Shown here: positions 14 through 54,758 of the stretch, piece by piece | Layout: every line of letters starts with the position of its first letter | Position numbering within the stretch: the stretch's first letter is position 1 | Sequence record: MW650886.1 | Length of the DNA stretch: 64,000 bases | Direction: 5' to 3' (one strand) | Origin: Escherichia phage vB_EcoM-ZQ1 | Notes under the pieces: model-generated | The model's input: only the letters and a program-made list of their open reading frames with translations | Told to the model about the DNA's origin: nothing | Database searches by the model: none | Translations under genes and position numbers: made by a program

Positions 14-1909
14 TTAATCAGAGAATACTAATCCGATTCGCTCCAGAATAAGGTAGTCAGAGGTGGTGGACGATACAACCTTTATAGCCACTGTAGTAAC
101 TAAATGTGGTGGGTTCGATAAATCTGTAAAAAACCACTCAACATCGCCGCCGCCTACTTTTGTGACAGTAGTATCATACACCCTACCAGATGCGATAGTT
201 GGGTTGAAAGTGAGGGACAGGGTGGCGCTGTTACTTGAACCGTTGTTGTCGGTGAAGGCTGCTATAATCGCCTCCAGACGTACTGGTCGCCCAAAGTTTA
301 TGGTGAATTGCTCCCCTGTCTTAATTCGGATAACTCCTGCTGGGTCATTCCATGTAGCAGTTGATGCAGGGTTTAGCCAGAACACATCCCCTGCGACAAT
401 AGGCTTTGTCTGGTATTTATAGCAGTTAGCGGGCAGGGCGTTAGCCTTTCGGAATAGTGTACGTATCAACTTACAGTCTTTTATTTTACTCTTGCGGATG
501 GCAAGACTTTGTTTCACGAGATTATATATCTGGTCATCGTTTTCCAGAAAGTGCCCATTTTTATCAGCATAGAAAGCCCACATGCCAATCTTAGAAAAGT
601 TTTTACAGATGAAGTTATTAACCGCTGTAATCTGTGCGGATTTTAAAGTTGGGGCCTCGTTCTCATACCAATACGCTGTTAGTAACGGGATGATACGTCC
701 TGCCCTCATCCCCTCCTCCTCCATAGCCGACCACATAGAGGCAGCATATCGACGGATACCAACTGCATCTATGAAATGCGCGTACTGGGATGTAAATACA
801 AAATCAATATCCATATGGAGCGGTAGAGAATCCCAGTTAACTTCTGCGTTACTAGCGGCGTACAGCGGTAGGTTACTAAGTGTTTTCACTTTAGCAATAA
901 TCTCCCCCTGGCGAGTAAGAGGGTATGTAGACAAATTCGGCTCGTCGAATAGGTATAGCCCTACTACAGCGTCATGGTCAAATAAAGAAGACAGCTTAGC
1001 GAAATCTGCATCCAGGTCAGATGAATATGCACCATTTGGCACTGCCTGAAGTATGACGTCGAAACCATACAACTCAGCTAAGTCCAGAAACGCACGGTAT
1101 GTATCAACACCTGCAGTCCAGGTGTAGAACATGAATGTCCCTATCCCTAAGTTACTGGCTTTTTCAAACAGAGTAGGGTCCAAGTCCAACTTAGTCCAAA
1201 CTTCTGAAAAAGCAACAATCCCATCAGAGTTTTTCTGTCGTTTAGGTTCGGAAATAGTGAATCCTTTGCCTGTAGCATCATAAAAAGTGTGTGCATTACC
1301 ACTTCCAGGAGACCCTGTGGTGCCAGTGGCACGATAACTAACCGTTCCATATTTGAACCGCAGGAGGACGCTATTTGTTTTTATCTGCGAGACTTTAGCT
1401 GTGGCAATATTTATAGCTTCGTTGACTGGTTCTCCACCCAATTTTGAACGCAAATCGGGGTCAATTTGAAGCTTCCAGTCACCATTACCCACCGGGTTAG
1501 TCTCTGACGTAATAGTTACAGGTAGAGTTCCTAAGTAGGTGTAACCTATGCCATTATGAAACAGTAACTCATTTCGAGTATTCACCACCAAACCAGTAGC
1601 AAACGAATCAGACAGGCTTACGAACTCTCTACGTGTAGCAGCCAGTTCACCCAAATCAACTGTACCTGCTGAATGTACCAGGATTGCATGTTCGTTCAGA
1701 CTTATCGCAGTCGTTCCTGAAACAATACCTGAAGGAAGAGAATAAGCCCGTTGGGTAGACTCATCATAAATTACTTTAAATCCACTGAGGTCAATACCGA
1801 CAGTGAAATAAACGACTTCGTCTTCTTTGACACCGAAATTTCGAGCGATAGATTGTTTGTTAACTTCTATGGAAGTGGAGCCGCGTGGTTGATTGAATTG
1901 AGAAATCAT
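14..1909 (-). CDS. Tailspike / tail fibre protein with C-terminal putative glycosidase (depolymerase) domain
   Basis: 631-aa ORF; N-terminal ~95 aa module (VKEDEVVYFTVGIDLSGFKVIYDESTQRAY...) is near-identical to an internal module of the adjacent 1050-aa ORF; C-terminal half has TIM-barrel glycoside-hydrolase-like motif (LYLFDEPN); late-promoter-like motif and SD upstream. Confidence 0.55.
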   Translation of the reverse strand: MISQFNQPRGSTSIEVNKQSIARNFGVKEDEVVYFTVGIDLSGFKVIYDESTQRAYSLPSGIVSGTTAISLNEHAILVHSAGTVDLGELAATRREFVSLSDSFATGLVVNTRNELLFHNGIGYTYLGTLPVTITSETNPVGNGDWKLQIDPDLRSKLGGEPVNEAINIATAKVSQIKTNSVLLRFKYGTVSYRATGTTGSPGSGNAHTFYDATGKGFTISEPKRQKNSDGIVAFSEVWTKLDLDPTLFEKASNLGIGTFMFYTWTAGVDTYRAFLDLAELYGFDVILQAVPNGAYSSDLDADFAKLSSLFDHDAVVGLYLFDEPNLSTYPLTRQGEIIAKVKTLSNLPLYAASNAEVNWDSLPLHMDIDFVFTSQYAHFIDAVGIRRYAASMWSAMEEEGMRAGRIIPLLTAYWYENEAPTLKSAQITAVNNFICKNFSKIGMWAFYADKNGHFLENDDQIYNLVKQSLAIRKSKIKDCKLIRTLFRKANALPANCYKYQTKPIVAGDVFWLNPASTATWNDPAGVIRIKTGEQFTINFGRPVRLEAIIAAFTDNNGSSNSATLSLTFNPTIASGRVYDTTVTKVGGGDVEWFFTDLSNPPHLVTTVAIKVVSSTTSDYLILERIGLVFSD

Positions 1910-1938
1910 GATAATACCCCATAAAGGATGACCAATAT

Positions 1939-1949
1939 GGGGTATTTAG
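1939..1949 (-). promoter_or_regulatory. Late-promoter-like motif CTAAATACCCC (minus strand) about 30 nt upstream of tailspike start
   Basis: Minus-strand sequence CTAAATACCCCATATTGGTCATCCTTTATGGGGTATTATCATG; resembles T4-type late promoter TATAAATA; same motif recurs upstream of other late genes. Confidence 0.4.
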
Positions 1950-1987: not shown

Positions 1988-2012
1988 ACCCCGCCGAAGC
2001 GGGGGTTTTTAT
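1988..2012. terminator. GC-rich hairpin (ACCCCGC-CGAA-GCGGGGGT) with flanking T/A runs, intrinsic terminator between the two tailspike genes
   Basis: Perfect stem-loop followed by TTTTTAT on the plus strand; on the minus strand it immediately follows the stop codon of ORF 2009..5161. Confidence 0.5.
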
Positions 2013-5000
2013 AACTTACCTAGTGCGATAGCGACGTACGGCGACGTTGTATTCCCGACAACGTTATACAGCCCAATCGGCGTTCGGTCTAATGATGGTA
2101 GCCTTGCCCCTGCAACACCACCAACACAGCCCAAAGGTAATGGGGTACTAAAGTTTAAATTAAGACGCTCAAAGATGGAGAAAGCCAGCGTTGGCACTAC
2201 CGGCACCAGTTCAATTATTTGAGGTCTTGTGCTAGCCGGAATGGAAACATTGTAAAACGATGCGAATGTTGTCCCGTCAGCCCTTTTCAATAACGGAGTC
2301 ACCGTCATGCCTGACTCCACTGGACCAATCATCAGGAACAGCCTGGTGATACCTGACAATTCAGTATTAACGCTGAAATACATATTACTGCTACTGGAGG
2401 TAGAGTTCACTCCAGAGAGCGAACCGAAACACGGAGTATCTTTTATGATACTTTGCAACCAATTAGCTTTAAAATTAGTTACCCTTTGTGTTCTGTTTTC
2501 CTGGGAGATAAAGAAATTCTGCCGGTGGATGCTGGTTACAACGTTCTCACCACTTCCGGAGTCTGGGACCTCATCAAACGATATTAACTCGTACACCCCA
2601 TCGGACACTTTCTTAGCCGACGCGTAGCAGCTGAAATAATCACCTTGATACACTATCTGTGATGTACTGAATGTGCTTAGATCGTAGGTAATGGTCAAGC
2701 TTACATTGCTGCGGTACATCGGAGTCACAGGACGTGAAGTAGTACCGGTAATTACCAGTGGGTCATCGAAGTCAGTGTACGCCTCAATTCGCGGGCCAGC
2801 GTACACATAATTGCTAACCAGTATTGACCAGCCGTTCGCCCCGGTTAGGTCATTTGTTTTACAAATAGCGATACCACCTGCGGAGCTACCAGTATTTGCT
2901 CTGATTACAGCAATCATTTGCCCGCGATAGTATCCAAGACAGGTTTCATTAATCAGGCTCCGCCCTGGAAAATCACTTATCTGAAAACTTTTAGTAACTG
3001 ACCATGTAGTACTTGCATTCAGAAGTACATCTGATGAAGTTACAAGCTGAACTTCTGTACCTGTTATACTGTAACGAGAAATAATAAGTTTGCCATCCGG
3101 TGTTGTTAATACGTTACCCCACTGATAATAATCATCCGTTGTTACGATGTCAGATTTGCTTGTAAATGCACCAGAGTTATTGAGATCTACGTACCCTACA
3201 ATAGTTTTTTTATAGGTATCTGCGGCGACGTCATGCAGCGTAAAGGCGATAATTAACTGATTACCTGGGTTGCTAACCGAAATGCTTGGCTCTTTTGCCG
3301 CTATACCCGCAGGTGGCACATATTCCCATATAACAGAAGCACTCCCGTCCTTGAGAATTTCTGCGATGCAGGCACTGTGCTTACCTGTTGCCTGATCGAT
3401 GTGTGCTGGCGATCGACGGAAACATAAAAGATTACGACCATTCCAGAATACGGTGTTACCAAATCCGTCATACTGTACCGTGGTATCTGTGTCTTTTAAT
3501 GACGTGAGGGTTGAAACGGCGGTTTTTAATGATGACATTGATTCTTTGGAAGTCACATCAACTGATGAATCCAATATAGATATTTCGTTATATATTGTAT
3601 CGATATTCTCCTGCACAGTTTTCCCATTACTGGAACCTGTAATCTGGGCACCATTATCTGATAATAAATCACTTCTTAAAGAAGCATCACCAACGCTAAC
3701 CCACGCACCAAGACCAGTACCACCAGATGCTTCAGGGGTTGAGCCAGATGGGACAGTTTTTGGAAACTCCCCTTCCCAGCGGTATTTACCTGTTGTATGG
3801 GTAAGTAATTCATTTTTAACATTAAGTGTAGCACCAGAATCAAATGTCCCGGACAATGTGACGTACTCTTCACGAGATACAGCCAATTCCCCAAGATCTA
3901 CAGAACCCGCTGAATGCACCAGTATAGCGGAAGAACTAAGACTGACAGCAGTAGTACCAGGGACAATATCAGCAGGCAAGGGATAAGCCCTTTGCGTCTC
4001 CTTGTCATAAATAACTTTATACCCACTTAACGCAGCACCAACACTAAAATAAACGACCTCTGTATCTTTAACATTGGCTACACGAGCCACTTCCCGCAAA
4101 GTATAATCAATTTGATTATAGATGTTTGGTGTTCCATTGATAATTACAACAACTTCATCCTCTGGTTCCAGTTCTTGCGCCAGAGTGATTTTACTGGTTA
4201 ATGGATCGAATGTGAATCCCAGATTTTTATACTGGCGACTTCCGTTTATATCAATGGCCGGAACATCATCAACAACGACGTCCAACGTGATTTCGGTTTC
4301 ACCACCAATCGCTGAACCCCCATTATAGACCCAAGTAATCGTAGAAGAACTAGAACCACCGCCATTACCCAATTGAATAGGAGTATATTCAATCACCTGA
4401 AGTTCTGTGTTGGCTGGCAAAGAAGGACTGAAAGTGATTACATTCCCATCTAGTGAATATTTGGATTCCGCAAGACGTTTCCCATCAGCATACACGTCCA
4501 CGATTGTTGGTGGAGTATTGAGAGCGACAGAACTTGTTTCAGACGCCAAAATTTTTGTAAAGATTTCACGACTGTAGACACGACCTTGGCCAAGACCGAC
4601 GCCGGATGTGATAACCCAACCTTGTTCAGGTCCAGACCAAGTGAACGTTGCTGATACGTTATCAGTTGTTATAGCCATGTCTTCAGTGGAGCCATACAAA
4701 TTATTTCCAGAAGGAGACACGGTCAATGGGTAAGTGGCAAATTTCCCATAAGCATCACAAATAGTAACGGAATCCCCAATACGCGTAGGGGAAGGGAGAA
4801 CCACTGTAGATGCCCCTGTGGTATTATTAATGAGATAGCCTCGCCCTTCAGTGAGCGTTGCCGTAGAGGCATGCGGAAGGACTTCCCAGCGGATACCACC
4901 GCCACCCAGCGGCAACCATCCACCATTTTCATAGAAGCCCTCAAATTCGTCGGAGTCGGCATTGTAGCGAACGGAAGACGGGAGTCCTGTGCTGGCATTA

Positions 5001-5161
5001 CCCTCGGGTAAAGTCAGGACAGCATCTGGTCCATGCTCAATCGTACCCGTGTTGAGGAGACCAGCCAAAGTAGACTGCTCTTCAGCCGCCAGACCGAGAG
5101 GGAAAACAGGCTGTGTTGGTTTATTAGCCATTTCAAATACCCCTAAATGTGTTCGTTTCAT
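2009..5161 (-). CDS. Large tailspike protein (about 1040-1050 aa); start probably the second ATG at 5131
   Basis: Long ORF with Gly/Ser/Thr-rich beta-rich composition; shares the ~95-aa module with ORF 14..1909 (residues around 350); first ATG lies inside an inverted repeat and the promoter-like motif, second ATG has SD AGGGG. Confidence 0.55.
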   Translation of the reverse strand: MKRTHLGVFEMANKPTQPVFPLGLAAEEQSTLAGLLNTGTIEHGPDAVLTLPEGNASTGLPSSVRYNADSDEFEGFYENGGWLPLGGGGIRWEVLPHASTATLTEGRGYLINNTTGASTVVLPSPTRIGDSVTICDAYGKFATYPLTVSPSGNNLYGSTEDMAITTDNVSATFTWSGPEQGWVITSGVGLGQGRVYSREIFTKILASETSSVALNTPPTIVDVYADGKRLAESKYSLDGNVITFSPSLPANTELQVIEYTPIQLGNGGGSSSSTITWVYNGGSAIGGETEITLDVVVDDVPAIDINGSRQYKNLGFTFDPLTSKITLAQELEPEDEVVVIINGTPNIYNQIDYTLREVARVANVKDTEVVYFSVGAALSGYKVIYDKETQRAYPLPADIVPGTTAVSLSSSAILVHSAGSVDLGELAVSREEYVTLSGTFDSGATLNVKNELLTHTTGKYRWEGEFPKTVPSGSTPEASGGTGLGAWVSVGDASLRSDLLSDNGAQITGSSNGKTVQENIDTIYNEISILDSSVDVTSKESMSSLKTAVSTLTSLKDTDTTVQYDGFGNTVFWNGRNLLCFRRSPAHIDQATGKHSACIAEILKDGSASVIWEYVPPAGIAAKEPSISVSNPGNQLIIAFTLHDVAADTYKKTIVGYVDLNNSGAFTSKSDIVTTDDYYQWGNVLTTPDGKLIISRYSITGTEVQLVTSSDVLLNASTTWSVTKSFQISDFPGRSLINETCLGYYRGQMIAVIRANTGSSAGGIAICKTNDLTGANGWSILVSNYVYAGPRIEAYTDFDDPLVITGTTSRPVTPMYRSNVSLTITYDLSTFSTSQIVYQGDYFSCYASAKKVSDGVYELISFDEVPDSGSGENVVTSIHRQNFFISQENRTQRVTNFKANWLQSIIKDTPCFGSLSGVNSTSSSSNMYFSVNTELSGITRLFLMIGPVESGMTVTPLLKRADGTTFASFYNVSIPASTRPQIIELVPVVPTLAFSIFERLNLNFSTPLPLGCVGGVAGARLPSLDRTPIGLYNVVGNTTSPYVAIALGKL

Positions 5162-5164
5162 CTA

Positions 5165-5175
5165 GGGGTATTTAG
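5165..5175 (-). promoter_or_regulatory. Late-promoter-like motif CTAAATACCCC (minus strand) at the start of the large tailspike gene
   Basis: Minus strand reads AAATACCCCTAGATGAAACGAACACATTTAGGGGTATTTGAAATG; motif is half of an 11-bp inverted repeat. Confidence 0.4.
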
Positions 5176-17140: not shown

Positions 17141-17201
17141 TGAATGGCTCTATGGTTAAATATGCCCACGTGCTAACGGCACGGATAACCTGGAGAATTA
17201 C

Positions 17202-18619
17202 ATGACCGTTTTCTATACGAACGTTGCCCGCAGGGGTAATGACCTGTTGATTCGAATTGCAGATGACATGGGTAATCGCCGTCTGTTGAAAAAGAAATTC
17301 GAACCTACTCTCTATTTACCCACGGCTGACTATTCAAATGTTGAAAAGGTCGGTCTTCTCAATGAACCCCTGGTAGCCAAGCAGTTCCCTTCCATGCGTG
17401 ACGCTGACAACTATCTTGAAGAGTACAAGGAAGTCCAGGGTGCTGCCATTTACGGGCAGACCGATTATGCATACCAGTTCATCGCCCATAGCTTTCCTGG
17501 AAAGATTGAGCCGGATTATTCCAACATCCATATTGCTAACCTCGATATCGAAGTGTTCTCCGCCGGGTGGAAAGATGGAAAGATGACCAAAGGTCCATTC
17601 CCTCACCCAACCATTGAGCAGCAGACGTTCAAAGGGAATGAGGCGCGCATTCGCCGCTTCCATCAGCAGGTACTGGCCAACCATGACTTCATCCGTGAGC
17701 ACTTTCCCAGTTCCTTTATCAGCAACAACGTCACTGATCAGTTCCCTATCATTGACAGCAACGGCAAGATCACCCAAGACATGAATGCGGCGTTCCCCAT
17801 TACCCTGATCCAGCTTCAGGATATGGCGACCAATAAGTTCATGGTCTGGGGTATGCCCTGTGCCAAAGACCGCAATAAGTTCGCATACGACACCGAAGAC
17901 AAAGAGATCGGCGGCCTTGAGGTTGTTTATCAGGAGTTCACCACAGAACAAGATCTGCTGCGCTCGTTCCTAGACTTCTGGTCGGAGCGTCAGTTTGATG
18001 GCTGGACTGGCTGGAACATTGAGACGTTTGATAGCCCTTATCTTGTTGAGCGCATGAATCAGGTTCTGGGTGAGGCTGAAACGTCGCGCCTCAGTCCTTG
18101 GGGTATCATTAAGAAGCGTATCATTCGCGATAAGAAGGGCGATATCACGACGTATCAGTTCGTGGGTTGCCCTATGCTCGATTATATGCAGATCTACAAG
18201 AAACACACGTACACCACCCGTGAACGCTACTCTCTTGACTGGATTGCGTATTGTGAGCTGGGTGAGAAGAAGATGGACTACAGTGAGAGCAAGTCGCTCT
18301 TTGATCTGTACTTCAACGACTACTGCAAACACACCCGATATGGTATCAAAGACGTTAAGCTGGTATGGCGACTTGAACAGAAGCTGCGCCTGCTCCAACT
18401 GATGTTCGTCCTGGCCTACCGCACCAAGTCCAACTATGAAGACGGTCTGGGCACTGTGGCTCCGTGGCTGGCCATGTGCTACTATCGCCTGTACGAGAAG
18501 GGGATAGTGCCTAAGATCCAGCGTGTATACGATGGTCCGACCGACTTTGAGGGTGCATACGTCATGGATGTGACACCAGGAATCTACTTCTGGGTCTTCT
18601 CGGAAGATTTGAACTCCCT
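17202..18619 (+). CDS. DNA polymerase, family B (T4 gp43-like), exon 1 (N-terminal exonuclease half)
   Basis: Exo I motif NLDIEV; ORF terminates 5 codons after the sequence DLNSL, which is the first half of polymerase motif A. Confidence 0.75.
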
Positions 18620-19802
18620 TAAGTTAGCAGCATAGGGGCTTTGGTTGGCGACAACCATCGAATAACTCTCTTAATTGCTGGGAAGTCTCTTTAGAGATAA
18701 TCAGCAGCCAAGGTCGGCCACGAAGACCTAAATACTCTGTAACCACGGTGAAGGAGTAAGGTCATGAAGGAAATCAAGAGTCTGTTCTATCGAAATGATT
18801 TGGTAATTGAAGAATCTAAGATAGAAGAATATTTGAAGTTCTGTAAGGAACACAGTTATGATGGTGATGGATACAGTGAACGCCATCATGTACTGCCTCA
18901 GGCACATTATCCTGAGTTCTCTAAAGAAGAATGGAACATCGTAAACCTGTTGTACAAAGATCATGTGGAGGCTCATCGCCTATTGCATGAAGCATTACCA
19001 GAAGATAAATCAGCGTTCTTCGCCTACTTCATGATGAAATCCCATAACGGGGAACTAAGTGAGGAATTGAGAAGAAAGAATGTTGAAATGTTGACGGGAG
19101 AAGGGAATCCTTCGAAGAGGGAAGATGTCAGAAGAAAGATATCCAAATCTAAGAAGGGTGTTAAAAGGGCAGATATGAAGGGTAAGGCTTATTTCGGCGC
19201 TGATAAAGAAACAGCTGAAAGAATTAAAGCCAATTCCAGTCTTGTTCACAAAGGCACTGTCCCCGTAAGACTCCTGGATGGTAGTGTTATCAAAGTTTCA
19301 ACGCAAGACCCGAGATATTTGAGTGGTGAGTTGAAATGTATAATAGGTGCAAAGAAAGGTCAGGTGGGACCAAACACCGACCCAAAAGCGAAGAAGAAAT
19401 TTAAAGATTCTTTAGAGAAAAGGAAGGAAATGTTTGCCAGAATGAGTGGGGAAGAAATAACCACTCATTGCTTGACACAACAGGATTTAGGTAAGAAGAC
19501 TGTAGAGTGGGGCAAGTTGGCAAGAAACTTCAAACGACTCTTTGGTTACGCTGGGTTAAACCCAGATGATTTCCTTGAAGTAGTGGGCGACAAGGTTCAA
19601 CGACTATCGAAAGCAAGACCGACGACTAAGCGTCTGATCTGAAGCGAGTAGAGTAGGGGCAAGCGCCTCGAAATGGAGAGAATCTCTAGACAGTTCTGGA
19701 GATTGTGATATAGTCTGGCCTGTATGGTGACATACAGCAGTGTTCGGTAAACTGAATGACGAACACGGGGGATGAAATAGCGAGCATCCCTGAACACAAG
19801 CG
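18620..19802 (+). mobile_element. Putative group I intron carrying an HNH homing endonuclease, inserted in the DNA polymerase gene
   Basis: Splicing 18619 to 19803 restores the frame and yields DLNSLYPHII (motif A); exon 1 ends in U, intervening sequence ends in G; internal ORF has an HNH motif. Confidence 0.6.
18764..19642 (+). CDS. HNH homing endonuclease (intron-encoded)
   Basis: HNH motif ERHHVLPQAHYPEF...NIVNLLYKDHVEAH; NUMOD-like repeats GEGNPSKREDVRRKISKSKKG; SD AAGGAG. Confidence 0.7.
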   Translation: MKEIKSLFYRNDLVIEESKIEEYLKFCKEHSYDGDGYSERHHVLPQAHYPEFSKEEWNIVNLLYKDHVEAHRLLHEALPEDKSAFFAYFMMKSHNGELSEELRRKNVEMLTGEGNPSKREDVRRKISKSKKGVKRADMKGKAYFGADKETAERIKANSSLVHKGTVPVRLLDGSVIKVSTQDPRYLSGELKCIIGAKKGQVGPNTDPKAKKKFKDSLEKRKEMFARMSGEEITTHCLTQQDLGKKTVEWGKLARNFKRLFGYAGLNPDDFLEVVGDKVQRLSKARPTTKRLI

Positions 19803-21150
19803 ATATCCACACATCATTCAGCAGTACAACCTCGGTCCTGAGACTATCGTTGGCGACAAACACCAGCGCCGCGAGATTATTGAGGCTATGTGTGAAGAGC
19901 TGGCTGCTCAGATGAATAACATGGCAACGCCGATGCACAAACGTCGGTTGATGAAAGCCCTTCACGACAAGCTGTTGCGTGCGGTTGACGAACGCCTGCA
20001 GGTTGTTGATGAGTTGGTTGCCCTGGGTGAGTTCCACTTTGAAACCCTGCGCCGCTACAACGTGTCGTTCACGCCGAACGTTCAATTCTTCAGCAACGAG
20101 AAGATGTCGTTCCTGTCTGAAATCATGCGTGGTATCTACAGCGACCGTAAAGTAGAGAAGGCCAAGGGTCTGAAGTATGAGCAGTGGGCTGGCTGGTGTA
20201 AAGAGATGTCGAAGGGCGACTTCCATCTTGAGTCTGCCATAAAGTCTCGCTACTATGACCCAGAGTGGTATGAAGAGCACAAGAACATTGATCTTGATGC
20301 CCTGACCGAAGTGATGAAGAAGTGGGAAGATCTGGGTGTTGCTCAAGATACCCTACAGCAAGGTCTGAAGATCTTGATGAACGCAGGTTATGGCGCTATC
20401 TCGAACGTCTGGTTCAAAGAGTACTTCAACCTCAACATTGCCGAAGCCATCACCACATCCGGTCAGCTGATCAATAAGTGGAACAAGCGTTACACTGATG
20501 ACTATCTGAACAAGCTGTGTGGTACAACAGGCCAGGACTTCGTCATTGCAGGGGATACCGACTCCAACTACATCTGTATTGAGCGTCTTGTCAAGCAGTT
20601 GTGGCCTGATGTTACTGACCATCATGCTATGGTTGATAATATCGACCAATGGATCAAAGACAACTACCAGCCGAAGACCAATGAGTGGGCACAGCTTCTG
20701 TGTAACACCATGAACGGATTTGAACAGCGCATGGTGTGGGAGCGTGAGGTCATTGCGTCAGCCGCTGTCTGGCGAGCCAAGAAGATGTATGCCATGGCCG
20801 TGTACGACAGTGAGGGTATCAAGTACGAGAAGCCGAAGATCAAGTTCAAAGGTCTGGAAGCCCGCAAGTCCACCACGCCGGAATGGTGTCGTGAGCGTCT
20901 TGTTAAGTGCTATGAGAAGATCCTACTCGGCACCGAAGAGGAAGTACAGACGCTCATCTCCCAGTACAAAGAGGAGTACATGAAGCTCTCTGTAGACGAT
21001 ATCGCCAAGGCATCCGGTGTGTCCGACATAGAGAAGTGTGTGGCCGCCGACGGCTCGTTCATCTCTGGTGCTCACTATGCTGCCAAGGCTTGTGTGGGTT
21101 ACAACCGTCTGGTTGAGAAGAACGAAGACCTCGGGCCTGCCGATGATTGA
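19803..21150 (+). CDS. DNA polymerase, family B, exon 2 (polymerase half)
   Basis: Begins YPHIIQQYNLGPETIV (motif A continuation); motif B KILMNAGYGA; motif C VIAGDTDSNYI. Confidence 0.75.
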
Positions 21151-21446
21151 GTCGGGTGATAAGGTCAACATGGTACTGCTGAAGAATGGCAACCCGTTTG
21201 GCCAGAATTACTTCGCATACCTGAGTTCTTCCCCGAGGAGCTTGGTCTGGGCAAATGGGTGGATTATCAGGCGGCCTTTGAGAAGTCCTTCATTGATCCG
21301 ATTCAGTCTATCCTCGACGTGGTCGGCTGGTCACACAAGCGCCGTGTGAACCTTCTTGCCATGATGCAAAAGAAGAAAGGTTGATTCAATAAACCAAAGG
21401 GGGATATAATTCCCCCTGTTAACCCTTTGACAAACAGGTGATTGAA

Positions 21447-21788
21447 ATGAAACTCAATAAGATTCTTCTGGTGTGTGCTCTGGCTTTCTCTACCACTGCG
21501 TGTTCCACCCTTCTGGACGTTGCATCTACTGTAGACCTTGACGCGCCGACGTTCACCAATGAGCAGGCCGTGTCTAAGATGGAAGACACCATCAAAGCAC
21601 ATGCAGCACTGGACAACACTACCCCAGGTCCGCTCCAAACTGTCTGCAACTATGACGATTCCATCCAGGAAGACGAAACTTACCACTGCATCACCTACGT
21701 GAAGCAGGCCTCCGTCGTTCTGTATGCAGATTGTACCGAAGAACAGTGTGTTGCTACAGGCTACGATAAAGTTGAGGAAGACAAATGA
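21447..21788 (+). CDS. Putative lipoprotein
   Basis: Signal peptide MKLNKILLVCALAFSTTAC with Cys at the lipobox position; SD AGGTGA; track start 21438 is a GTG. Confidence 0.45.
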   Translation: MKLNKILLVCALAFSTTACSTLLDVASTVDLDAPTFTNEQAVSKMEDTIKAHAALDNTTPGPLQTVCNYDDSIQEDETYHCITYVKQASVVLYADCTEEQCVATGYDKVEEDK

Positions 21789-22561
21789 ACAACCTGGTTT
21801 GTATCTATGATATGAAATCAAAGGTCGGTGGCCTGTATCGCGTCCTCGTGGATGTTGACCTGACTTTGGTCGACAGCCTCTCCCCTTGGGTGCAGTGGTT
21901 CAACGAAGAGAATCTCAGCTTATCCAAGCATTATGACGGTCATGGACCAGCGCCGTTCCAGCCGATCACTAAAGAGTGTTATATGTCCCATGCTGGCGAC
22001 CTGGCTATTCTGATGCGTGAACGTGCGCATCCGGCGTGGCTATACCATGAAGTCCAATTGGGGCTGCACAAACAACGTGTGCCAAGCGGTAACGATCCTA
22101 TGGACTGGTGGCGTCGCCCTGACCTGTACGCCAAGATGAACCCACTTCCAGGCGCTTACGAGTTCCTGGTGAATCTGAAGAAGATTCTACTCGAAGACTT
22201 TGACAATGTTGAATTCATCGCAGTGTCCAAGTGTGAGCCGGAACACGAGCGCAGCAAGCGTCAGTTTGTCTATGACAAGTTCCCTGGTATCTTCAACGGG
22301 TTTGTCAGCACCGACGAAAAGCATCTGCTGGCTGGCGATGTCCTGATTGATGACAATCCGAAGTATGTCGAGCCATGCGGCCTGAACAACATCTTTGTCA
22401 TCTTTGTTCCTCAGGGCAATTATGAAAAACTGGATCTTTCGAATTCGGAAGACATGCTTTATATTAAACCAGTAGAAGGCCAGAATCACTTCGACTTCCT
22501 GAACCGCAATATTGTCGAAGTGGTGAACCGCCTGATTAGTCATTATCAATACGTCCGATAG
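21785..22561 (+). CDS. HAD-superfamily phosphatase (5'-deoxyribonucleotidase-like)
   Basis: HAD motif I VLVDVDLTLVDS (DxDxT) and C-terminal DD motif (VLIDDNPKY). Confidence 0.55.
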   Translation: MNNLVCIYDMKSKVGGLYRVLVDVDLTLVDSLSPWVQWFNEENLSLSKHYDGHGPAPFQPITKECYMSHAGDLAILMRERAHPAWLYHEVQLGLHKQRVPSGNDPMDWWRRPDLYAKMNPLPGAYEFLVNLKKILLEDFDNVEFIAVSKCEPEHERSKRQFVYDKFPGIFNGFVSTDEKHLLAGDVLIDDNPKYVEPCGLNNIFVIFVPQGNYEKLDLSNSEDMLYIKPVEGQNHFDFLNRNIVEVVNRLISHYQYVR

Positions 22562-22570
22562 GAGGACATC

Positions 22571-22876
22571 GTGCAAGAACAATCCAAGTTTGGGGAAACC
22601 CCAGACAAGCGTTCCGGTGATAGCGACATGGATAGCGTGATTAACCATGTGAACAACTTCATTCGTCAGCAGGAGACTCCAACTCCTATCGGTGCAGCCA
22701 AGGCTCTTCATGATATACTGGTGAAGATCGGCCAGCGCTCTGAAGCAGATGAAATCTTCTATAACTTCGACGACCAGTATAAAGTGAAGTTTGAAGAGAA
22801 TGGCCACCCACAGGTTGCTGTGTTCTGGGCACCTTGGCTGGGTGGCGTGAGCTGGCGTATTGAGGATGCTGTGTAA
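22571..22876 (+). CDS. Hypothetical protein
   Basis: 101-aa ORF. Confidence 0.4.
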   Translation: MQEQSKFGETPDKRSGDSDMDSVINHVNNFIRQQETPTPIGAAKALHDILVKIGQRSEADEIFYNFDDQYKVKFEENGHPQVAVFWAPWLGGVSWRIEDAV

Positions 22877-24474
22877 TGGCTCGCTACCATTACACATATA
22901 GGATAACTCATGTCCCAACTGGGAGATTCTACGTCGGGATTCGGTCTTGTTCATGCACCCCCGAACAAGACCCCTATATGGGTTCTGGTGTTATCATCAA
23001 AAGGTTGTTGGAATCTCACCCCGCTTCTGAATTCTTAAAGACGATAATAGAAAAGTTTGAAACCAGGTTGGAGGCGTCCGACCTGGAGTCTATTATTGTT
23101 ACGGAAGAGTTACTGTTGGACCCATTATGCCTGAACCTGAAATTGGGAGGAGACAATTCTATCATACCAAACCAATTTAAGGCGGCGTTGGCCAGGACTG
23201 GCAAGAAATACAAATCTGGTATAAATCCTTGGGATGATCCAGAATACCGGGAACGTGTAATAAAATCAATAAAGGAGAACAGGGGTAATTCTCCCTACCC
23301 ATTCATGGTTTCAAATGGTTATTGGTGGGTTTGGAAGGACGCCCGTAGGATCTATGATAGATGGGTGAACAACGGCGGTACTGTGAATCCTACCTGTATG
23401 CCAAAACGAGGATGTGGTTACAAATCTATCGGATTGTGGTATTCTAAACTACTGGACACAGAGTATCGTAATCTAAAGGGCGATGAGAGCGTCTTTCGTA
23501 ATATGATCGCCATGTTTAAAGATGGTTGGATTCCCAAAGAGGACAAACGTTTTATGACTATGATAAATTCTAGCGTGACGCCGGGTATTGTCGTTATTCG
23601 CGGGACAAGTGGAACGGGAAAGGGGACTCGTGTCGTTCAATTCCTTGAGTGGTTGAGAACCAAATATGAGCCAGAACTCATAGAATACGAATTCGACAAG
23701 AAGATGATCCAGGTTGGGTTTTGGTTCAAGGAAATCAATCTGGTGTTCATCGGCAAGTATACAGTGTCCAACAAATCAGGTCTAGCATCATGGACTTCTA
23801 TGGATTTCATACACTCCACTCTCAAGTCTTCTGAGATGGCCAATTCGTTGTTGAAGTATCTCAAAATAAAGTTCAAAGATGCAACTATCATCTTGGAGGG
23901 GGAACCTATGATGCAGAGCCATCGATGGCGTCCCGAGTTCGTACACCAGGACTTGGGGTTCAACAACATGGCATTCATCTCCTTTATTTACCAAGCGCGG
24001 GAAGATTACGACAAACGTATCATCGGTCGTTCTGGTAAGGCGGCGAAGGACACTGGCTGGGGAAGAAATGAACAATACACCAAGGATCACGTCAAGATCA
24101 TGGGTGAGTACGCTTCCATCGGATACGAACTTGAACCAGACTCTCAGAATGAGTTGTTCATTGCAAAGGCAGCGAATGAAAATGGTGTAAAGGCAGTTGG
24201 TTGGAATATACTGAAATTCTTCGATGCCCCTCTCCACTTTATTGGTAGTTTTATTATAGATTTTGTTGGATTGAGAGGGTTGTCCAAAGAAGAGTTTCAA
24301 AAATATTGCGACACCACACCAATGTTGCGCAAGATTAAGGGTAGCAACCCTTTGGCGCACAGAGTCCCTGAGAAGCCGCAGAAGGCATCCAAAACTAAAA
24401 CCAAGGCGAGCGCCCAGCCAGAAGCAACGAAGGCAGCGTCGCGCTCTCTCCTTGACCTGATGAAGAAGGGGTGA
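22876..24474 (+). CDS. P-loop kinase with GIY-YIG-like N-terminal extension (candidate 5-hydroxymethyl-dU DNA kinase-type enzyme)
   Basis: N-terminus YHYTYRITHVPTGRFYVGIRS resembles a GIY-YIG nuclease motif; Walker A GIVVIRGTSGTGKGT at about residue 235, preceded by an internal ATG. Confidence 0.5.
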   Translation: MARYHYTYRITHVPTGRFYVGIRSCSCTPEQDPYMGSGVIIKRLLESHPASEFLKTIIEKFETRLEASDLESIIVTEELLLDPLCLNLKLGGDNSIIPNQFKAALARTGKKYKSGINPWDDPEYRERVIKSIKENRGNSPYPFMVSNGYWWVWKDARRIYDRWVNNGGTVNPTCMPKRGCGYKSIGLWYSKLLDTEYRNLKGDESVFRNMIAMFKDGWIPKEDKRFMTMINSSVTPGIVVIRGTSGTGKGTRVVQFLEWLRTKYEPELIEYEFDKKMIQVGFWFKEINLVFIGKYTVSNKSGLASWTSMDFIHSTLKSSEMANSLLKYLKIKFKDATIILEGEPMMQSHRWRPEFVHQDLGFNNMAFISFIYQAREDYDKRIIGRSGKAAKDTGWGRNEQYTKDHVKIMGEYASIGYELEPDSQNELFIAKAANENGVKAVGWNILKFFDAPLHFIGSFIIDFVGLRGLSKEEFQKYCDTTPMLRKIKGSNPLAHRVPEKPQKASKTKTKASAQPEATKAASRSLLDLMKKG

Positions 24475-24476
24475 TC

Positions 24477-24674
24477 ATGAAACGGTTGTCTAATTATCTG
24501 TTGTTCATTGGTCTGGTTATGGCAGCCGTTTCAATGTGTACTGCCCTAGCCTATCATTTCACCCCTCTGGACTTAACAACCTCAGAGAAGTTAAACGTGA
24601 CTGTGATGTACTGTATTGGCGCGGTGATGTCTATCGGCGCTGCTGGTTACAAAATATTCAAGGAACCAAAATGA
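24477..24674 (+). CDS. Small membrane protein
   Basis: 65 aa, two hydrophobic helices; SD GAAGGGG; track start 24471 is a GTG. Confidence 0.4.
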   Translation: MKRLSNYLLFIGLVMAAVSMCTALAYHFTPLDLTTSEKLNVTVMYCIGAVMSIGAAGYKIFKEPK

Positions 24675-25048
24675 AAATTCAAATTCCTCGCGATGCTGTG
24701 GCTGTTGCGATCGACTACACCGGAAACGCCAAGCACATTACTGCCGTGCGCCTGATTCCTGAAAAGAACTGCGTCATCCCTCAGTTCCAACTGAATGCCA
24801 ATCCGTCATCCAAAGACTTTGGCAAGTGGTTGCAGGCTGCTCCGTTCCGTACCCAGACGAACGCTCAGATGTTCATCTCGAGTAAGACCCACACCGCAGC
24901 CCGTCTGTGGTTCGTGACCGCTGACCGTCGCTTTGTCGATATGTGGGAACGTCCGATGGGGTTCGTGAAGCCGGAAGATATTCAGCTGGCTCCTGAGCCT
25001 GAAGCTGTGGCTCCTGAAGAGGAAGCGAAAGATGCATCATTTATCTAA
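24671..25048 (+). CDS. Hypothetical protein
   Basis: 125 aa; ATG overlaps the upstream stop (ATGA); the track ORF 24536..25048 has an unlikely upstream start. Confidence 0.45.
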   Translation: MKIQIPRDAVAVAIDYTGNAKHITAVRLIPEKNCVIPQFQLNANPSSKDFGKWLQAAPFRTQTNAQMFISSKTHTAARLWFVTADRRFVDMWERPMGFVKPEDIQLAPEPEAVAPEEEAKDASFI

Positions 25049-26267
25049 AATGCCGACGGGCTATACGCCTCCGGCTGAATGGAAGTACCCGATTGACCTG
25101 GCTGTTGATTATCGCAAGCCTGAGAATCGCATGTACCTGCTCAAGGCTTGGGTGGAGGCGCTGTCCTACACAGAAGAGCACAACCAGCAGATGCGTCTGA
25201 TGGACTATGCGATCGAAGTCACTGAAGGCATCAGCCTCGAACAGAAAGTCGAGCGCAAGATCTGGATGGCATTCCTGTGGGGTTGTTGCTATAACGCCGT
25301 CGGGCCGTGGACGATCTACAGTGAGTTCCCTGTGCCGCCTCAGTCTAAGGAAGATATGCAGCGCTTCTCTGATTGGTACAACCTGAACTTTGATCGCATG
25401 CGATTCGATACCGACTGTCGCTACCGCAAGTCCAAGATGATTCCGTGTGTTCAGTCCTATATTGACTGGCTGGCTGGCCGTACTCAATATGACGCTTTCC
25501 GTGGGATGTTGGTGTGCATCGATAAGACAGAACAATTCACCCAGCTGTGGGACACGGCGATGTCCTGGAAATACTTCGGTCGCCTGAGCGCCTGGAACTT
25601 CCTGGAAGCCCTGAACATGGTATTCGGAAACGAATACACCATTGACGTCCCTGGCTTCATGTTGCGTGATCGTGATGGAAGCGAGTCCAACCGTAATGGC
25701 GCGGCGTTCTTGTCCAACCGTGACGATTGGGTGACTAAACACGGGAAGAAAAAGATCAACGGTTGTCCTATCATGGATGAAGAGTGTGACATCCTTGAGG
25801 CCGACCTTGAGCAGGCGTTCCAGGATTGTGTGGCTGAGTTCGGGCACCTGACGTTCATCAACCGCCTGAACTTTGAAACCTCCGGCGCTTGTTGGCTGAA
25901 GAAATTCTTCCGACTGAAGAATACCCGTTACATCGGGTGGGACGCAGAGCGTACTTGGGATGAGATAGACTACATGGAACGCGTCTGGCCTGAATACTCC
26001 TGCGCAGCGCTCTGGGAAGCCCGTTCGCTCTGGCTGCCAGATACCCTGTTGTGCGAAAAGGCTCCTGTAGGGCACGTTCCAGGCGTCCAGAAGTGGAAGA
26101 TGCCTGTATTCTTTGAGACTGGTGTTCCTCTGCATATCTGGCACCTGCAAAAGGGTACGCGCTGGGAACCATCCGAGGTATGTACGAACCTGAAGATGCC
26201 TGTGCGCAAGGTTGAGGACAAGTCGAAGTCCAGCAGCGTCAACCTCATGGCACTCTTGAAACGCTGA
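25032..26267 (+). CDS. Hypothetical protein (candidate DNA base-modification enzyme by context)
   Basis: 411-aa ORF directly downstream of the kinase; SD GAGGAAG; the antisense 369-aa ORF 25041..26150 is judged a shadow. Confidence 0.45.
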   Translation: MHHLSKMPTGYTPPAEWKYPIDLAVDYRKPENRMYLLKAWVEALSYTEEHNQQMRLMDYAIEVTEGISLEQKVERKIWMAFLWGCCYNAVGPWTIYSEFPVPPQSKEDMQRFSDWYNLNFDRMRFDTDCRYRKSKMIPCVQSYIDWLAGRTQYDAFRGMLVCIDKTEQFTQLWDTAMSWKYFGRLSAWNFLEALNMVFGNEYTIDVPGFMLRDRDGSESNRNGAAFLSNRDDWVTKHGKKKINGCPIMDEECDILEADLEQAFQDCVAEFGHLTFINRLNFETSGACWLKKFFRLKNTRYIGWDAERTWDEIDYMERVWPEYSCAALWEARSLWLPDTLLCEKAPVGHVPGVQKWKMPVFFETGVPLHIWHLQKGTRWEPSEVCTNLKMPVRKVEDKSKSSSVNLMALLKR

Positions 26268-26301
26268 TATAAATATCCTCGCCTATAAAGCGAGGATATT
26301 A

Positions 26302-26472
26302 TCATGTTACAAGATCTGTTGGTTTATGCGCTTCCTGGCGCGGTTGTCGGCTTCATCGCTGGTGCTCTGGTCTTCCGTAAACACGCGCAAGATGGTGAAG
26401 TGATTGTTCAGAAGGGTAAGGACATCCTGGAACAAATCGAAGCCAAGCTGGAAGAGCTGAAGAAAAAGTAAT
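26302..26472 (+). CDS. Small single-TM protein (56 aa)
   Basis: MLQDLLVYALPGAVVGFIAGALVFRK... followed by a charged tail; preceded by a hairpin containing TATAAATA. Confidence 0.35.
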
Positions 26473-26497
26473 CTGACTGGGTTGCTTCCTTCAATAA

Positions 26498-26536
26498 AGG
26501 GGAATGGGTTATTATTAGCCCGTTCCCCTTTCTTTT
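26498..26536 (+). terminator. Intrinsic terminator
   Basis: Stem GGGGAATGGG / CCCGTTCCCC followed by TTTCTTTTT; preceded by TTCAATAAA. Confidence 0.6.
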
Positions 26537-26638
26537 TGCAAGAATATACATCATGGCAATGCAACGAATTGAAGATATGTCTCTACTCAACATGGAAGCG
26601 ACTTTTGGCGCTTCCGTTATCGTCATGGGAGAATCCAA

Positions 26639-26857
26639 ATGATCAAGAATACCCGAACAATGAAGCGCGCAATCGCTCACTGTGTCCATTCAGTGGCAAC
26701 TATTATGTTCCGCCACCACATCACATTTGATGAAGCACTGGACCCACAGTACCATGAAGAGCGTTGGGATTTGTTGTTAAAGAACGGCGCCAATCCTGAG
26801 CATAAAGATCAACTCCTTGGGATGACCAAGGCGCAGCTCGTCGGTGAATCCAAATGA
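26639..26857 (+). CDS. Hypothetical small protein
   Basis: 72-aa ORF whose stop overlaps the next start. Confidence 0.4.
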   Translation: MIKNTRTMKRAIAHCVHSVATIMFRHHITFDEALDPQYHEERWDLLLKNGANPEHKDQLLGMTKAQLVGESK

Positions 26858-27966
26858 TCTACCTCCTGTTTGGTGTGCCATTGGTACTGGCTATCCTGTT
26901 TGTGACCTACCACCGCAAGACCCATGAGCCGAAAGAGACTCTGATAGCGACCGCGATTGTAGTGGTGCTATCCTGTCTGATTCAGGCGGGGACTTATGCT
27001 GCGTTCTCCCTTGGCAGTTCAGGGGATATTGAGATCCTGAACGGGTACGTCACTGCAAAGGAGCGGAATGAGGTGAGCTGTGAGCATTCATATGAATGCA
27101 ACTGTTACTACACCACATCTTGTACAGGTTCAGGAAATAACCGATCTTGTACACAAACGCGTCATTGCAGCACATGCTATGAGCACTCTTATGACGTGGA
27201 CTGGGATGTGTTGACGACTGTCGGTAATTTGACGATTGACCGCATTGATCGTCGCGGCCTTGGTCAGCCCCCGCGCTGGGCGCAAGTTCAGATCGGCGAA
27301 CCCGCAGCCCGTGAGCATTCCTACATGAACTATGTGCTGGGTAACAAGGACTCTCTGTTCTCTCGCTCGGACCAGCAGTTTGCTGAGCGCTTCAAAGACA
27401 AGATTCCGAAGTACCCTGAGGTCTATGACTACTATCGCGTCACTCGTGTACTGAATGTGTCAGGGATGGACATTCCTGTTGATTACTGGAATGACTATCT
27501 GAACAATACTCTGAAAACATTAGGTGCTTCACGCCAGGTCAATATCGTCTGGGTTGTGACATCCGGTCAGCCAGTTGAATACTTCCAGGGCTTGGTCTAT
27601 GCTTGGGATGGTGGTAAAAAGAACGACGTTATCGTCGTGACCGACATCAGCAAAGATCTGAAGATCAACTGGGGCAAGAGCACTTCGTTCGCTGATGGTA
27701 TGCACAACCGTGAACTCCATTCTCGCAATGGCATGGCTCTCACAGGCCACGACATGGGCGTCGGTGTCATGGCTGATGTTGTCGCTAACATCACCAAAGG
27801 CTACAACCGCGTTGAGATGAAGGAAATGGAGTACCTGAAGTGGCGGGAACTCAAGACCTGGGAAGTTGTGGTTGTTGTTCTGCTGGGCTGCTTACCATTC
27901 ACCGCAATTTTCATATTGCAGCGAATGGAGTACAATGGTGGCCGTCGTTATCCGTTTAATTTTTAA
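26854..27966 (+). CDS. Cys-rich membrane protein (N- and C-terminal TM helices, large extracytoplasmic domain)
   Basis: TM helices at both ends; Cys cluster CEHSYECNCYYTTSCTGSGNNRSCTQTRHCSTCYEHSY; immediately upstream of the LemA-family gene. Confidence 0.5.
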   Translation: MIYLLFGVPLVLAILFVTYHRKTHEPKETLIATAIVVVLSCLIQAGTYAAFSLGSSGDIEILNGYVTAKERNEVSCEHSYECNCYYTTSCTGSGNNRSCTQTRHCSTCYEHSYDVDWDVLTTVGNLTIDRIDRRGLGQPPRWAQVQIGEPAAREHSYMNYVLGNKDSLFSRSDQQFAERFKDKIPKYPEVYDYYRVTRVLNVSGMDIPVDYWNDYLNNTLKTLGASRQVNIVWVVTSGQPVEYFQGLVYAWDGGKKNDVIVVTDISKDLKINWGKSTSFADGMHNRELHSRNGMALTGHDMGVGVMADVVANITKGYNRVEMKEMEYLKWRELKTWEVVVVVLLGCLPFTAIFILQRMEYNGGRRYPFNF

Positions 27967-27984: not shown

Positions 27985-28554
27985 ATGTCTCAATCTAAGG
28001 GTATTGCAACAGGTTGGATAATTGGTTTGGCTTTGCTGGGTGTAGTGATTCTCGGCATCGGTACAGTCATCAGCTACTTCAACGACTTCAACCGCACTGA
28101 GCAGCAGGTCAAGAAGTTCAACAAAGACTCCGAGAACTACCTGAGCAACTACACGCTCAAAGTTCAGGAGACGGCGCAGATTCCTGACATGTATAAAGAC
28201 GGCCTGAAGGAAGTGATCAAAGGCACGTTCGAAGGGCGTTATGGCGCTGATGGTTCCAAGGCCGTCATGCAGTGGATCCAGGAGCAGAATATTCAGTTCG
28301 ATTCCAGCCTGTACAAAGAGATCCAGGTGGTGATCAGTTCTGGGCGTGATGAATTCCGCATCAGCCAGACCAAGAAGCTGGATATCTGCACAATATACGA
28401 AACCAAGCTGGCTCAGTTCCCTGGTTCGTTGATTGCTGGCATGTTTGGCTACCCGCGTATCGACCTTGACAAGACCTGCCAGGTGGTGAGTGATACCCGT
28501 ACCCAGGCCGCGTTCGACGCTGGTATTCAGAAACCGATTAACTTCAAAGGCTGA
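27985..28554 (+). CDS. LemA-family membrane protein
   Basis: N-terminal TM helix, then LemA-like sequence ending in the characteristic motif KLAQFPGSLIAGMFGY. Confidence 0.6.
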   Translation: MSQSKGIATGWIIGLALLGVVILGIGTVISYFNDFNRTEQQVKKFNKDSENYLSNYTLKVQETAQIPDMYKDGLKEVIKGTFEGRYGADGSKAVMQWIQEQNIQFDSSLYKEIQVVISSGRDEFRISQTKKLDICTIYETKLAQFPGSLIAGMFGYPRIDLDKTCQVVSDTRTQAAFDAGIQKPINFKG

Positions 28555-49179: not shown

Positions 49180-49186
49180 CTAAATA
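49180..49186 (+). promoter_or_regulatory. Late-promoter-like CTAAATA motif upstream of structural gene 49221
   Basis: TCCTAAATAGCTATAAC about 35 nt upstream of the ATG. Confidence 0.35.
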
Positions 49187-54098: not shown

Positions 54099-54758
54099 TC
54101 AGACTCCGTGGGCTTGTATTAGCTCACGGAGTCTCTGTTTTGAATATGTGGTATCCTCATCCGGAACCACAGCATTCGTCTTCCTGAGCAAGAACGCCTC
54201 TGAGTTCCAGTAGATGTCATCACGCAGAATCGTATCGTATAGATGAATGAAACCAACGATCTTGTTCAGACCGACAAGGAACCAAATCGGGAACTTCTTG
54301 ATGATGATGTCTGTCAGCAACGGTGGATGACCTGTACCCGTCCCCTTGATGTACTCAATGAAGGTGCAGTTGCGCTCCCTTATGGCAGGGATCATCTCCC
54401 GCTCGAACTCCTCAAGGAAGTTATATGTAAAGTTCTCGTACAGCTTACGGTATTCATCATAATTGGCCTGAGCCTGGCGTGTAAGCAATGTCGTCACCCA
54501 GGTCTTGGGTGATTTGATGAAGTTGGCAATGATGTAGTTCTCTACCACTTCACCCTGTGATGACTCGAACCGACGGGCAAGGCGAGCAAACTGTTTGCAC
54601 ACGGCCTCCTTCGCCAAGAACGTCTCGAACTTGTAATTCATCGGTCCATACAAGCTGTAATCGAAGTCCTTAGTGGTGAAGTGCAGCTTGATCGCCATGA
54701 AGACACAGTAAACGTTGAACGCCCGCTCGAACTCCATCTTCTGCCACTCTGTTAGCAT
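54099..54758 (-). CDS. Hypothetical protein
   Basis: 219-aa ORF. Confidence 0.45.
   Translation of the reverse strand: MLTEWQKMEFERAFNVYCVFMAIKLHFTTKDFDYSLYGPMNYKFETFLAKEAVCKQFARLARRFESSQGEVVENYIIANFIKSPKTWVTTLLTRQAQANYDEYRKLYENFTYNFLEEFEREMIPAIRERNCTFIEYIKGTGTGHPPLLTDIIIKKFPIWFLVGLNKIVGFIHLYDTILRDDIYWNSEAFLLRKTNAVVPDEDTTYSKQRLRELIQAHGV
54101..54141 (+). terminator. Intrinsic terminator after the late block
   Basis: 10-bp stem AGACTCCGTG / CACGGAGTCT followed by CTGTTTTG; overlaps the 3' end of the convergent minus-strand ORF. Confidence 0.55.

Follow-up and report, generated by a model that had tools for sequence, protein, structure and literature searches.

We analysed a 64,000-nucleotide (nt) stretch of Escherichia phage vB_EcoM-ZQ1 (sequence record MW650886.1; hereafter the window), concentrating on a compact cassette in which a late-promoter box like that of bacteriophage T4, a hairpin, a gene for a 55-amino-acid (aa) membrane protein and an intrinsic terminator follow one another. 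Our analyses suggested that this locus is probably a translational gate of the T4 gene e type, that is, a late promoter lying within a hairpin that masks the ribosome site of the gene behind it, here placed on a small inner-membrane protein. The anatomy of the locus, its thermodynamics, its conservation and the recurrence of the arrangement at other genes were established directly. The mechanism is classical T4 biology, and the orthologous site of the relative LIMEstone1 is already annotated as a putative late promoter; what is new is the statistical support, obtained from genome sequences, for a gate that recurs in Ackermannviridae on the gene classes that carry it in T4. Late promoters and post-transcriptional control are essentially uncharacterised in this family (ViI, CBA120, LIMEstone, Agtrevirus), whose phages are widely proposed for biocontrol.

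Anatomy, folding and conservation of the cassette

By direct reading, the stop codon of a 411-aa open reading frame (ORF) is followed immediately by an exact match to the T4 late-promoter octamer TATAAATA and by a perfect 10-bp hairpin (11 bp counting A26272-T26300), whose 3' arm holds the Shine-Dalgarno (SD) sequence GAGGA of the 55-aa gene, 7 nt ahead of the ATG (Table 1). A first-pass annotation, made from the letters alone, had described a late box and a hairpin after the stop of ORF 25032..26267, followed by a small ORF and a strong terminator. The box and the terminator are present as described, and the 10-bp hairpin is real as well, lying at 26273-26299, one base to the right of the 26272..26298 first assigned. 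The small ORF also exists, but as 26304..26471 with 55 aa rather than 26302..26472 with 56 aa. The interpretation given at that stage is supported in part, and the masking of the ribosome site by the hairpin had been missed.

The terminator closes both the cassette and the upstream operon. It combines a stem-loop with a U-run, 7 of its 16 stem pairs are GC, and its fold is significant (z=-5.5). An Rfam search of the cassette returned nothing relevant, the only match being a sub-threshold one to the Pseudomonas sRNA P31 (26450-26528, + strand; 30.1 bits against a gathering threshold of 40), which was judged a chance match to a terminator-like stem.

Table 1. Features of the cassette and two further occurrences of the box-in-hairpin arrangement in the window
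Feature	Position	Strand	Details
Upstream gene	25032..26267	+	411-aa amino-acid:DNA transferase (thymidine hypermodification); Pfam PF18724 ADDT, E=3e-59
Stop TGA of the 411-aa ORF	26265-26267	+	Direct reading
T4 late-promoter octamer TATAAATA	26268-26275	+	Exact match; family-conserved core TAAATA 26270-26275
Hairpin 5' arm ATATCCTCGC	26273-26282	+	Direct reading
Hairpin loop CTATAAA	26283-26289	+	Direct reading
Hairpin 3' arm GCGAGGATAT	26290-26299	+	Direct reading; holds Shine-Dalgarno GAGGA 26292-26296
Predicted late transcription start	~G26281 (+/-2 nt)	+	Placed by T4 geometry, box -13 to -6
Predicted extended helix, read-through RNA	26255..26313	+	Minimum free energy fold: 26265-69/26300-04, 26260-63/26305-08, 26255-58/26310-13
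55-aa gene	26304..26471	+	ATG 26304, 55 aa plus stop
Intrinsic terminator	26496..26538	+	16-bp stem 26496-26531, 4-nt loop, CTTTTT tail
Second instance	5129..5174	-	TAAATA 5174-5169 opens 16-bp stem (5174-5159 / 5149-5134)
Third instance	1907..1948	-	TAAATA 1948-1943 overlaps 11-bp stem (1946-1936 / 1923-1913)

Folding calculations predicted that the SD sequence and the AUG of the 55-aa gene are masked on RNA reading through from upstream. The segment 26255-26320 folds at -24.3 kcal/mol (z=-6.15), none of 200 shuffled sequences being as stable, and in a 101-nt read-through context the fold reaches -35.7 kcal/mol (z=-5.2). The core stem is prolonged into an interrupted helix of about 23 bp in all, which pairs the AUG as well. 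A chance palindrome is ruled out by the z score of -6.15 together with the invariance of the element across genera. The T4 late box occupies positions -13 to -6 (Geiduschek and Kassavetis, 2010, PMC2988020). An RNA beginning at the start predicted from this geometry would retain no more than 2 nt of the 5' arm, and its fold is not significant (z=+0.55). The mean unpaired probability over positions -13..+3 was 0.01 for read-through RNA, compared with 0.52 for RNA starting 6 nt past the box. Furthermore, among 82 candidate starts in the window, that of the 55-aa gene is the most occluded (unpaired probability 0.02 over positions -14..+3).

The genomic setting suggests where read-through RNA would come from. 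The 2-kb stretch round the cassette is 98.7% identical to Escherichia phage LHE287 by nucleotide comparison and 80-98% identical to about 280 Ackermannviridae records (Agtrevirus-like, Dickeya Limestonevirus, Salmonella and E. coli Kuttervirus); judged by such matches, the source phage is a Vi1-like member of the family. In relatives, the gene order runs from DNA polymerase through small ORFs, the 411-aa gene (annotated as aGPT-Pplase clade 2 in one of them) and a 55-aa "putative membrane protein" to further ORFs and rIIA. In the window, the 411-aa gene is the final member of a + strand block starting at the DNA polymerase gene (17202), and a scan of 17202-26496 for strong + strand terminators found none before 26496. 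Klebsiella-type relatives (loci L017-L020 and L024) have no box, hairpin or 55-aa ORF, and a conserved terminator directly follows their ADDT stop. The cassette therefore appears to be an indel or insertion between the last gene of the operon and its terminator, so that upstream transcripts would have to cross the 55-aa gene and presumably extend through the cassette.

We propose that the gate works as follows. On the long RNAs of the upstream operon, all of which would run through the 55-aa gene because it precedes the operon terminator, the sequence past the upstream stop would pair with the SD and AUG, through the 10-bp core and the extended helix, and the paired site would stop ribosomes from initiating. 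A gp55-type late box would sit in the 5' strand of this masking helix. RNA starting about 6 nt past the box, at about 26281, would lack the 5' arm and leave the ribosome site open, and this short late RNA would end about 250 nt on, at the strong terminator. The 55-aa protein would thus be made only from the short late transcript. We infer both the start site of that transcript and the block that the helix would impose on translation.

The element is highly conserved. The order TGA-TATAAATA-hairpin-ATG is kept in 18 relatives, with the octamer invariant among them. LIMEstone1 has the orthologous locus, 88% identical in nucleotide sequence and with box, ORF and terminator shared, and its record HE600015 carries a 'minus_10_signal, putative late promoter' at the orthologous site (147905-147910) and a terminator after the ORF, ORF191. 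Likeness to T4 -10 boxes was the sole basis for calling late sites in LIMEstone1 (Adriaenssens et al., 2012, PMC3296691), and those of AG3 were likewise predicted from their resemblance to T4. Divergence of the leader between distinct sequences was 0.09 per site, compared with a synonymous divergence (pS) of 0.31 in the adjoining ORF, which makes the leader about three times more conserved. Across 8 distinct relatives, 98.7% of the cells of the core stem are paired, and at both variable stem positions a C facing G is replaced by U, giving a G-U pair in the + strand RNA and an A-C mismatch on the other strand.

These variants bear on whether the inverted repeat might act in DNA, either as a cruciform or as an operator at which a dimeric regulator would bind over the late promoter. 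The repeat, a perfect palindrome of 10 bp whose arms are 7 bp apart and which overlaps a promoter box, would suit such a role, but the C-to-T variants keep pairing only in the + strand RNA, and the arms at the other instances described below share only the box and the SD complement, with loops of 5-15 nt, which argues against a common protein site. We regard a DNA-level function as most improbable.

Homologous loci outside the close relatives keep parts of the design. Serratia phage phiMAM1 has a different gene upstream and retains TAAATA with an unchanged distance of 28 nt to the ATG. An 84-aa homologue occurs in the T4-like Erwinia phage FBB1 (Tevenvirinae; locus L030, 1471-1758), where it is located after a tRNA cluster. 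A reciprocal tblastn search from this homologue matched only itself, and the link is carried by the forward hit (E=3e-5) and a pairwise BLASTP alignment (40% identity over 52 aa). Ahead of the FBB1 gene stand a canonical TATAAATA, 25 nt from the ATG, and an 8-bp SD-masking hairpin (z=-4.4) whose sequence is unrelated to that in the window. Judged by the FBB1 case, the protein family crosses phage families together with the regulatory design. The compact late transcription unit read from the sequence in the first pass gains support from the LIMEstone1 annotation and from the phiMAM1 and FBB1 loci.

Recurrence of the box and the hairpin in Ackermannviridae

With 0.83 copies expected, the full T4 octamer is found three times in the 64 kb, a count reached by 4 of 100 shuffled sequences and thus not above chance by itself. 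The core hexamer is far more informative. For this comparison we used a list of starts combining an SD sequence with an ATG, which contains some false starts that dilute rather than inflate the contrasts. Of the 21 TAAATA copies in the window, 10 are found 20-50 nt ahead of such a start (0.4 expected, P=2e-12). LIMEstone1 has 28 of 54 copies so placed (P=8e-33), despite an overall under-representation of the hexamer. The spacing from box to ATG ranges from 24 to 42 nt. The genes behind the boxes are mostly virion genes, including gp48, gp4, gp2, gp26, gp5, gp6, gp18, gp22, gp14, tail spikes and nine proteomically confirmed structural ORFs; boxes also stand ahead of the endolysin, RuvC, UvsW and homing endonucleases. 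The family consensus reads c-TAAATA-y-C-y-y-a-a-a. Conservation does not extend to the two 5' bases of the T4 octamer, which are most often C, so the perfect octamer at 26268 is partly coincidence. In addition, homologues of gp55, gp33 and gp45 are annotated in LIMEstone1 and have been reported for CBA120, ViI and AG3; these genes lie outside the 64-kb window, and the evidence for them comes from relatives only. Taken together, these data point to TAAATA as a probable late promoter of Ackermannviridae.

Two divergent boxes were also noted, at 49181 (+) and 49208 (-), which form an inverted repeat between a gp48-like gene (ATG 49221, +) and a gp4/homing-endonuclease unit (ATG 49170, -). By its sequence, this region looks like a bidirectional late promoter region.

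The combination of box and hairpin is found again at two consecutive tail-spike genes of the window (Table 1). The first of these stems stops 2 nt before ATG 5131 of a 1040-aa tail-spike gene (5131..2009; -22.2 kcal/mol, z=-6.9), and the other stops 3 nt before ATG 1909 of a 631-aa tail-spike gene (1909..14; -20.5 kcal/mol, z=-4.6). A further arrangement, TAAATA with a 6-bp SD-masking stem, lies at 18729-18766 (+) before a 292-aa intron-type homing endonuclease within the split DNA polymerase gene, and its counterpart in LIMEstone1 (139325-139362) has an SD-masking stem of 9 bp. LIMEstone1 shows the design at the endolysin (13 bp), RuvC (15 bp), the intron endonuclease I-LimII (9 bp), ORF063, ORF129, ORF173 and two tail spikes, and an imperfect version at UvsW. 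The endolysin leader (LIMEstone1 54246-54282, -) forms a 13-14-bp hairpin in which TAAATA constitutes the 5' arm and the 3' arm contains a GGAGG Shine-Dalgarno; it is kept in four genera (Limestonevirus, Agtrevirus-like, Kuttervirus and Taipeivirus; loci L031, L032 and L033), with changes that are wobble-compatible.

Association between box and hairpin was assessed at gene starts. In LIMEstone1, the design is present at 10 of 28 box-associated starts, compared with any stem of at least 8 bp in the translation initiation region (TIR) at 8 of 179 other starts (Fisher p=9e-6); the corresponding fractions in the window are 4/10 and 2/72 (Fisher p=0.0016). We relied on this start-anchored test instead of a comparison with control hexamers, which is partly confounded, AAATAT and ATAAAT overlapping the same sites. 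The stem sequences of the instances are unrelated to each other. Sequence statistics thus support a box with a masking hairpin as a recurrent feature of Ackermannviridae.

The other instances also bear on the extended helix of the 55-aa locus, which resembles an RNase III substrate in its length and internal loops and might be a site at which RNase III, or another enzyme, parts the small cistron from the operon mRNA, as in T7. This is very unlikely in our view, because the other instances are stems of 9-16 bp with no extended helix, and the geometry of the helix tracks box and SD and not a shared length.

Several observations weigh against the gate as proposed. First, the CBA120 paper calls the late-promoter sequence of the family "not yet identified", and a literature search for transcript or translation data, or for mapped late promoters, in Ackermannviridae found none. 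Second, the start of the DNA polymerase gene has a TAAATA copy 39 nt ahead of it (17157-17204, +), which is unexpected for a late box; the site may have arisen by chance or may serve to re-express the operon late, and because of it the upstream transcripts are perhaps not exclusively early. Third, no compensatory double substitutions were found in the stem in a 12-sequence leader alignment. The leader sequences are too similar for such changes to appear, and support for the hairpin therefore comes from thermodynamics, recurrence and conservation relative to synonymous sites. Fourth, the phiMAM1 hairpin is weak (z=-0.9) though box and spacing are kept, so that strong masking is not obligatory for the 55-aa gene. 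Fifth, both tail-spike junctions are late-to-late, and the gate there cannot be purely temporal; at these genes it may limit translation to promoter-proximal RNA, or the hairpin may serve as a 3'-end element as well. Finally, the hairpins of the endolysin and ORF129 have U-rich tails and were annotated as terminators.

The last two points lead to another explanation, in which the hairpin is mainly a 3'-end element of the upstream mRNA, a partial terminator or exonuclease barrier whose A- and U-tracts are the AAATA/UAUUU flanks and which overlaps a promoter for re-initiation. It would account for the design between late genes, where temporal gating makes no sense, and for the endolysin and ORF129 hairpins, which are followed by UAUUUUCUU and were called terminators by three annotation teams. 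The 55-aa locus has UAUUAUCAUGUU as its tail, which did not pass the terminator scan; only 26496 did. The strong terminator 200 nt downstream is moreover the operon end in relatives that lack the ORF. In LIMEstone1, a hairpin of 8 bp or more that overlaps the box is missing at 18 of the 28 box-associated starts, and TAAATA, invariant there by definition, still keeps its spacing of 24-42 nt; in addition, any RNA that read through would be translationally masked anyway. Because its tail is poor and a real terminator lies 200 nt on, we rank this explanation lower at the 55-aa locus and consider it unlikely as the main function of the hairpin. A translational gate with a late promoter in its hairpin is our preferred interpretation.

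The 55-aa membrane protein

The gated ORF is a real gene. Its ratio of nonsynonymous to synonymous divergence (pN/pS) is 0.084 at pS=0.31, indicating strong purifying selection, and its product is 90-98% identical across genera and present in 226 phage records. The protein (MLQDLLVYALPGAVVGFIAGALVFRKHAQDGEVIVQKGKDILEQIEAKLEELKKK) has an N-terminal transmembrane (TM) segment at about residues 4-24 with a conserved GxxxG motif, then R/K and a charged C-terminal helix of 30 aa. The single TM segment claimed in the first pass is confirmed by the 19-residue Kyte-Doolittle mean, which peaks at about 1.8 over residues 4-22. With R25/K26 after the TM segment, the positive-inside rule predicts an N-out/C-in topology.

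Homology was searched with Pfam, PHROGs, a word search of 5.8 billion proteins and a full hidden Markov model (HMM) search of 1.84 billion representatives, and these gave a family of "unknown function" only. The PHROGs match is to phrog_3879, of unknown function (E=1.2e-31, residues 2-55 against profile positions 1-54 of 54). A search with this profile found 129 cluster representatives, mostly of 40-90 aa, sharing the motif VVGF(I/V)AGALVFR(K/N). Neither Pfam nor PHROGs gave a match to any holin, antiholin or spanin family; Pfam gave sub-threshold glycine-zipper hits only, and a sub-threshold likeness was seen to the N-terminal anchors of ZapG/YhcB and RNase Y. No masking hairpin was found at phrog_3879 members in unrelated phage contigs, which makes the gate a property of T4-like late-promoter systems rather than of the protein family.

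The earlier suggestion that the protein is of the holin, antiholin or spanin type is thus not borne out by homology, and the endolysin and an Rz-like spanin (phrog_3843) are encoded elsewhere in family genomes (LIMEstone1: endolysin at 53-54 kb, spanin at 72-73 kb, 55-aa ORF at 148 kb). A spanin role is effectively excluded: the predicted topology is the reverse of that of an i-spanin, the protein has no Cys and no lipobox, no embedded or adjacent lipoprotein ORF could serve as partner, and the Rz-like spanin lies at another locus.

It may nevertheless be asked whether the cassette is a plain late transcription unit for a lysis protein, with the hairpin incidental. The product is small and has a single TM segment and a charged C-terminus, as expected of a holin, together with a GxxxG motif, and it stands behind a late-type promoter. 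No holin has been identified in Ackermannviridae, and CBA120 shows lysis inhibition. The endolysin of relatives is under the same promoter-in-hairpin gate, so that co-regulation is possible, and the tightest TIR masking in the window would be expected of a toxic product. On the other side, the only family match has no assigned function and none of the 226 phage records says holin. The endolysin is about 55 kb off on the circular map and the Rz-like spanin is elsewhere, the C-in prediction and the lack of an adjacent or embedded lipoprotein ORF speak against an i-spanin, and distant family members are not beside lysis genes: at three loci a PHROG scan found no lysis-gene neighbours, and the genes had a major head gene or a DarB-like one in their vicinity. 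The family has at least six more small membrane proteins of unknown function that are candidates on the same footing. A plain lysis unit with an incidental hairpin therefore seems doubtful to us, and a holin or antiholin role of the protein is possible, unsupported and, in our estimate, improbable. Only slight credence can be given to the more specific idea that the protein is the missing holin or lysis-timing partner of Ackermannviridae, silenced until late by the endolysin's type of gate; if true, the cassette would be half of a co-gated, physically unlinked lysis system. The protein is a reasonable first candidate in the search for the missing holin of the family.

Other genes near the cassette were noted as well. 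Downstream, 26854..27966 (+) encodes a 370-aa Cys-rich protein with terminal TM segments (phrog_2087, unknown function), and 27985..28554 (+) encodes a LemA-like 189-aa membrane protein (phrog_1383, labelled 'virion structural protein'). Upstream, 22876..24474 (+) is a single 532-aa ORF joining the N-terminus of a GIY-YIG homing endonuclease to a P-loop protein. The P-loop part is a separate 305-aa coding sequence in LHE287 and AV101, and LIMEstone1 has a 531-aa 'F-LimXI' there.

Comparison with the gated genes of T4

The results suggest a testable rule for Ackermannviridae: TAAATA would be the late box, and a hairpin masking the ribosome site would restrict translation to promoter-proximal late transcripts. 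The logic of T4 genes e, 49 and I-TevI would then reach beyond Straboviridae, on functionally equivalent genes, and "terminator" hairpins placed directly before start codons in these genomes are worth re-reading.

In T4 e, soc, 49 and I-TevI, and in Aeh1 mobE, the SD and/or AUG is sequestered on long transcripts (Uzan and Miller, 2010, PMC3014915). A TATAAATA late promoter forms part of the 5' strand of the masking helix, and late transcripts, which lack that strand, are translated (PMC3014915). The anatomy of the 55-aa leader is identical to that of the T4 gene e leader, with the SD in the helix and TATAAATA in its 5' strand; the box matches the T4 late promoter exactly, and its promoter activity in this phage is putative. 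The LIMEstone1 record annotates the late promoter and the terminator at this locus, but not the hairpin or the masking of the SD. Unlike T4, the host phage belongs to Ackermannviridae and not to Straboviridae, and the family box is followed by a C/T-rich segment, whereas an AT-rich segment follows that of T4. The gated 55-aa gene has no T4 counterpart of known function, and Ackermannviridae, unlike the T4 cases, use the design between late tail-spike genes too. In contrast, the other gated genes closely parallel those of T4: the endolysin, RuvC, the intron endonuclease and structural genes are counterparts of e, 49, I-TevI and soc, the arrangement before the 292-aa homing endonuclease is the same as at I-TevI, and the T4 gene e leader has its closest analogue in the endolysin hairpin of Ackermannviridae.

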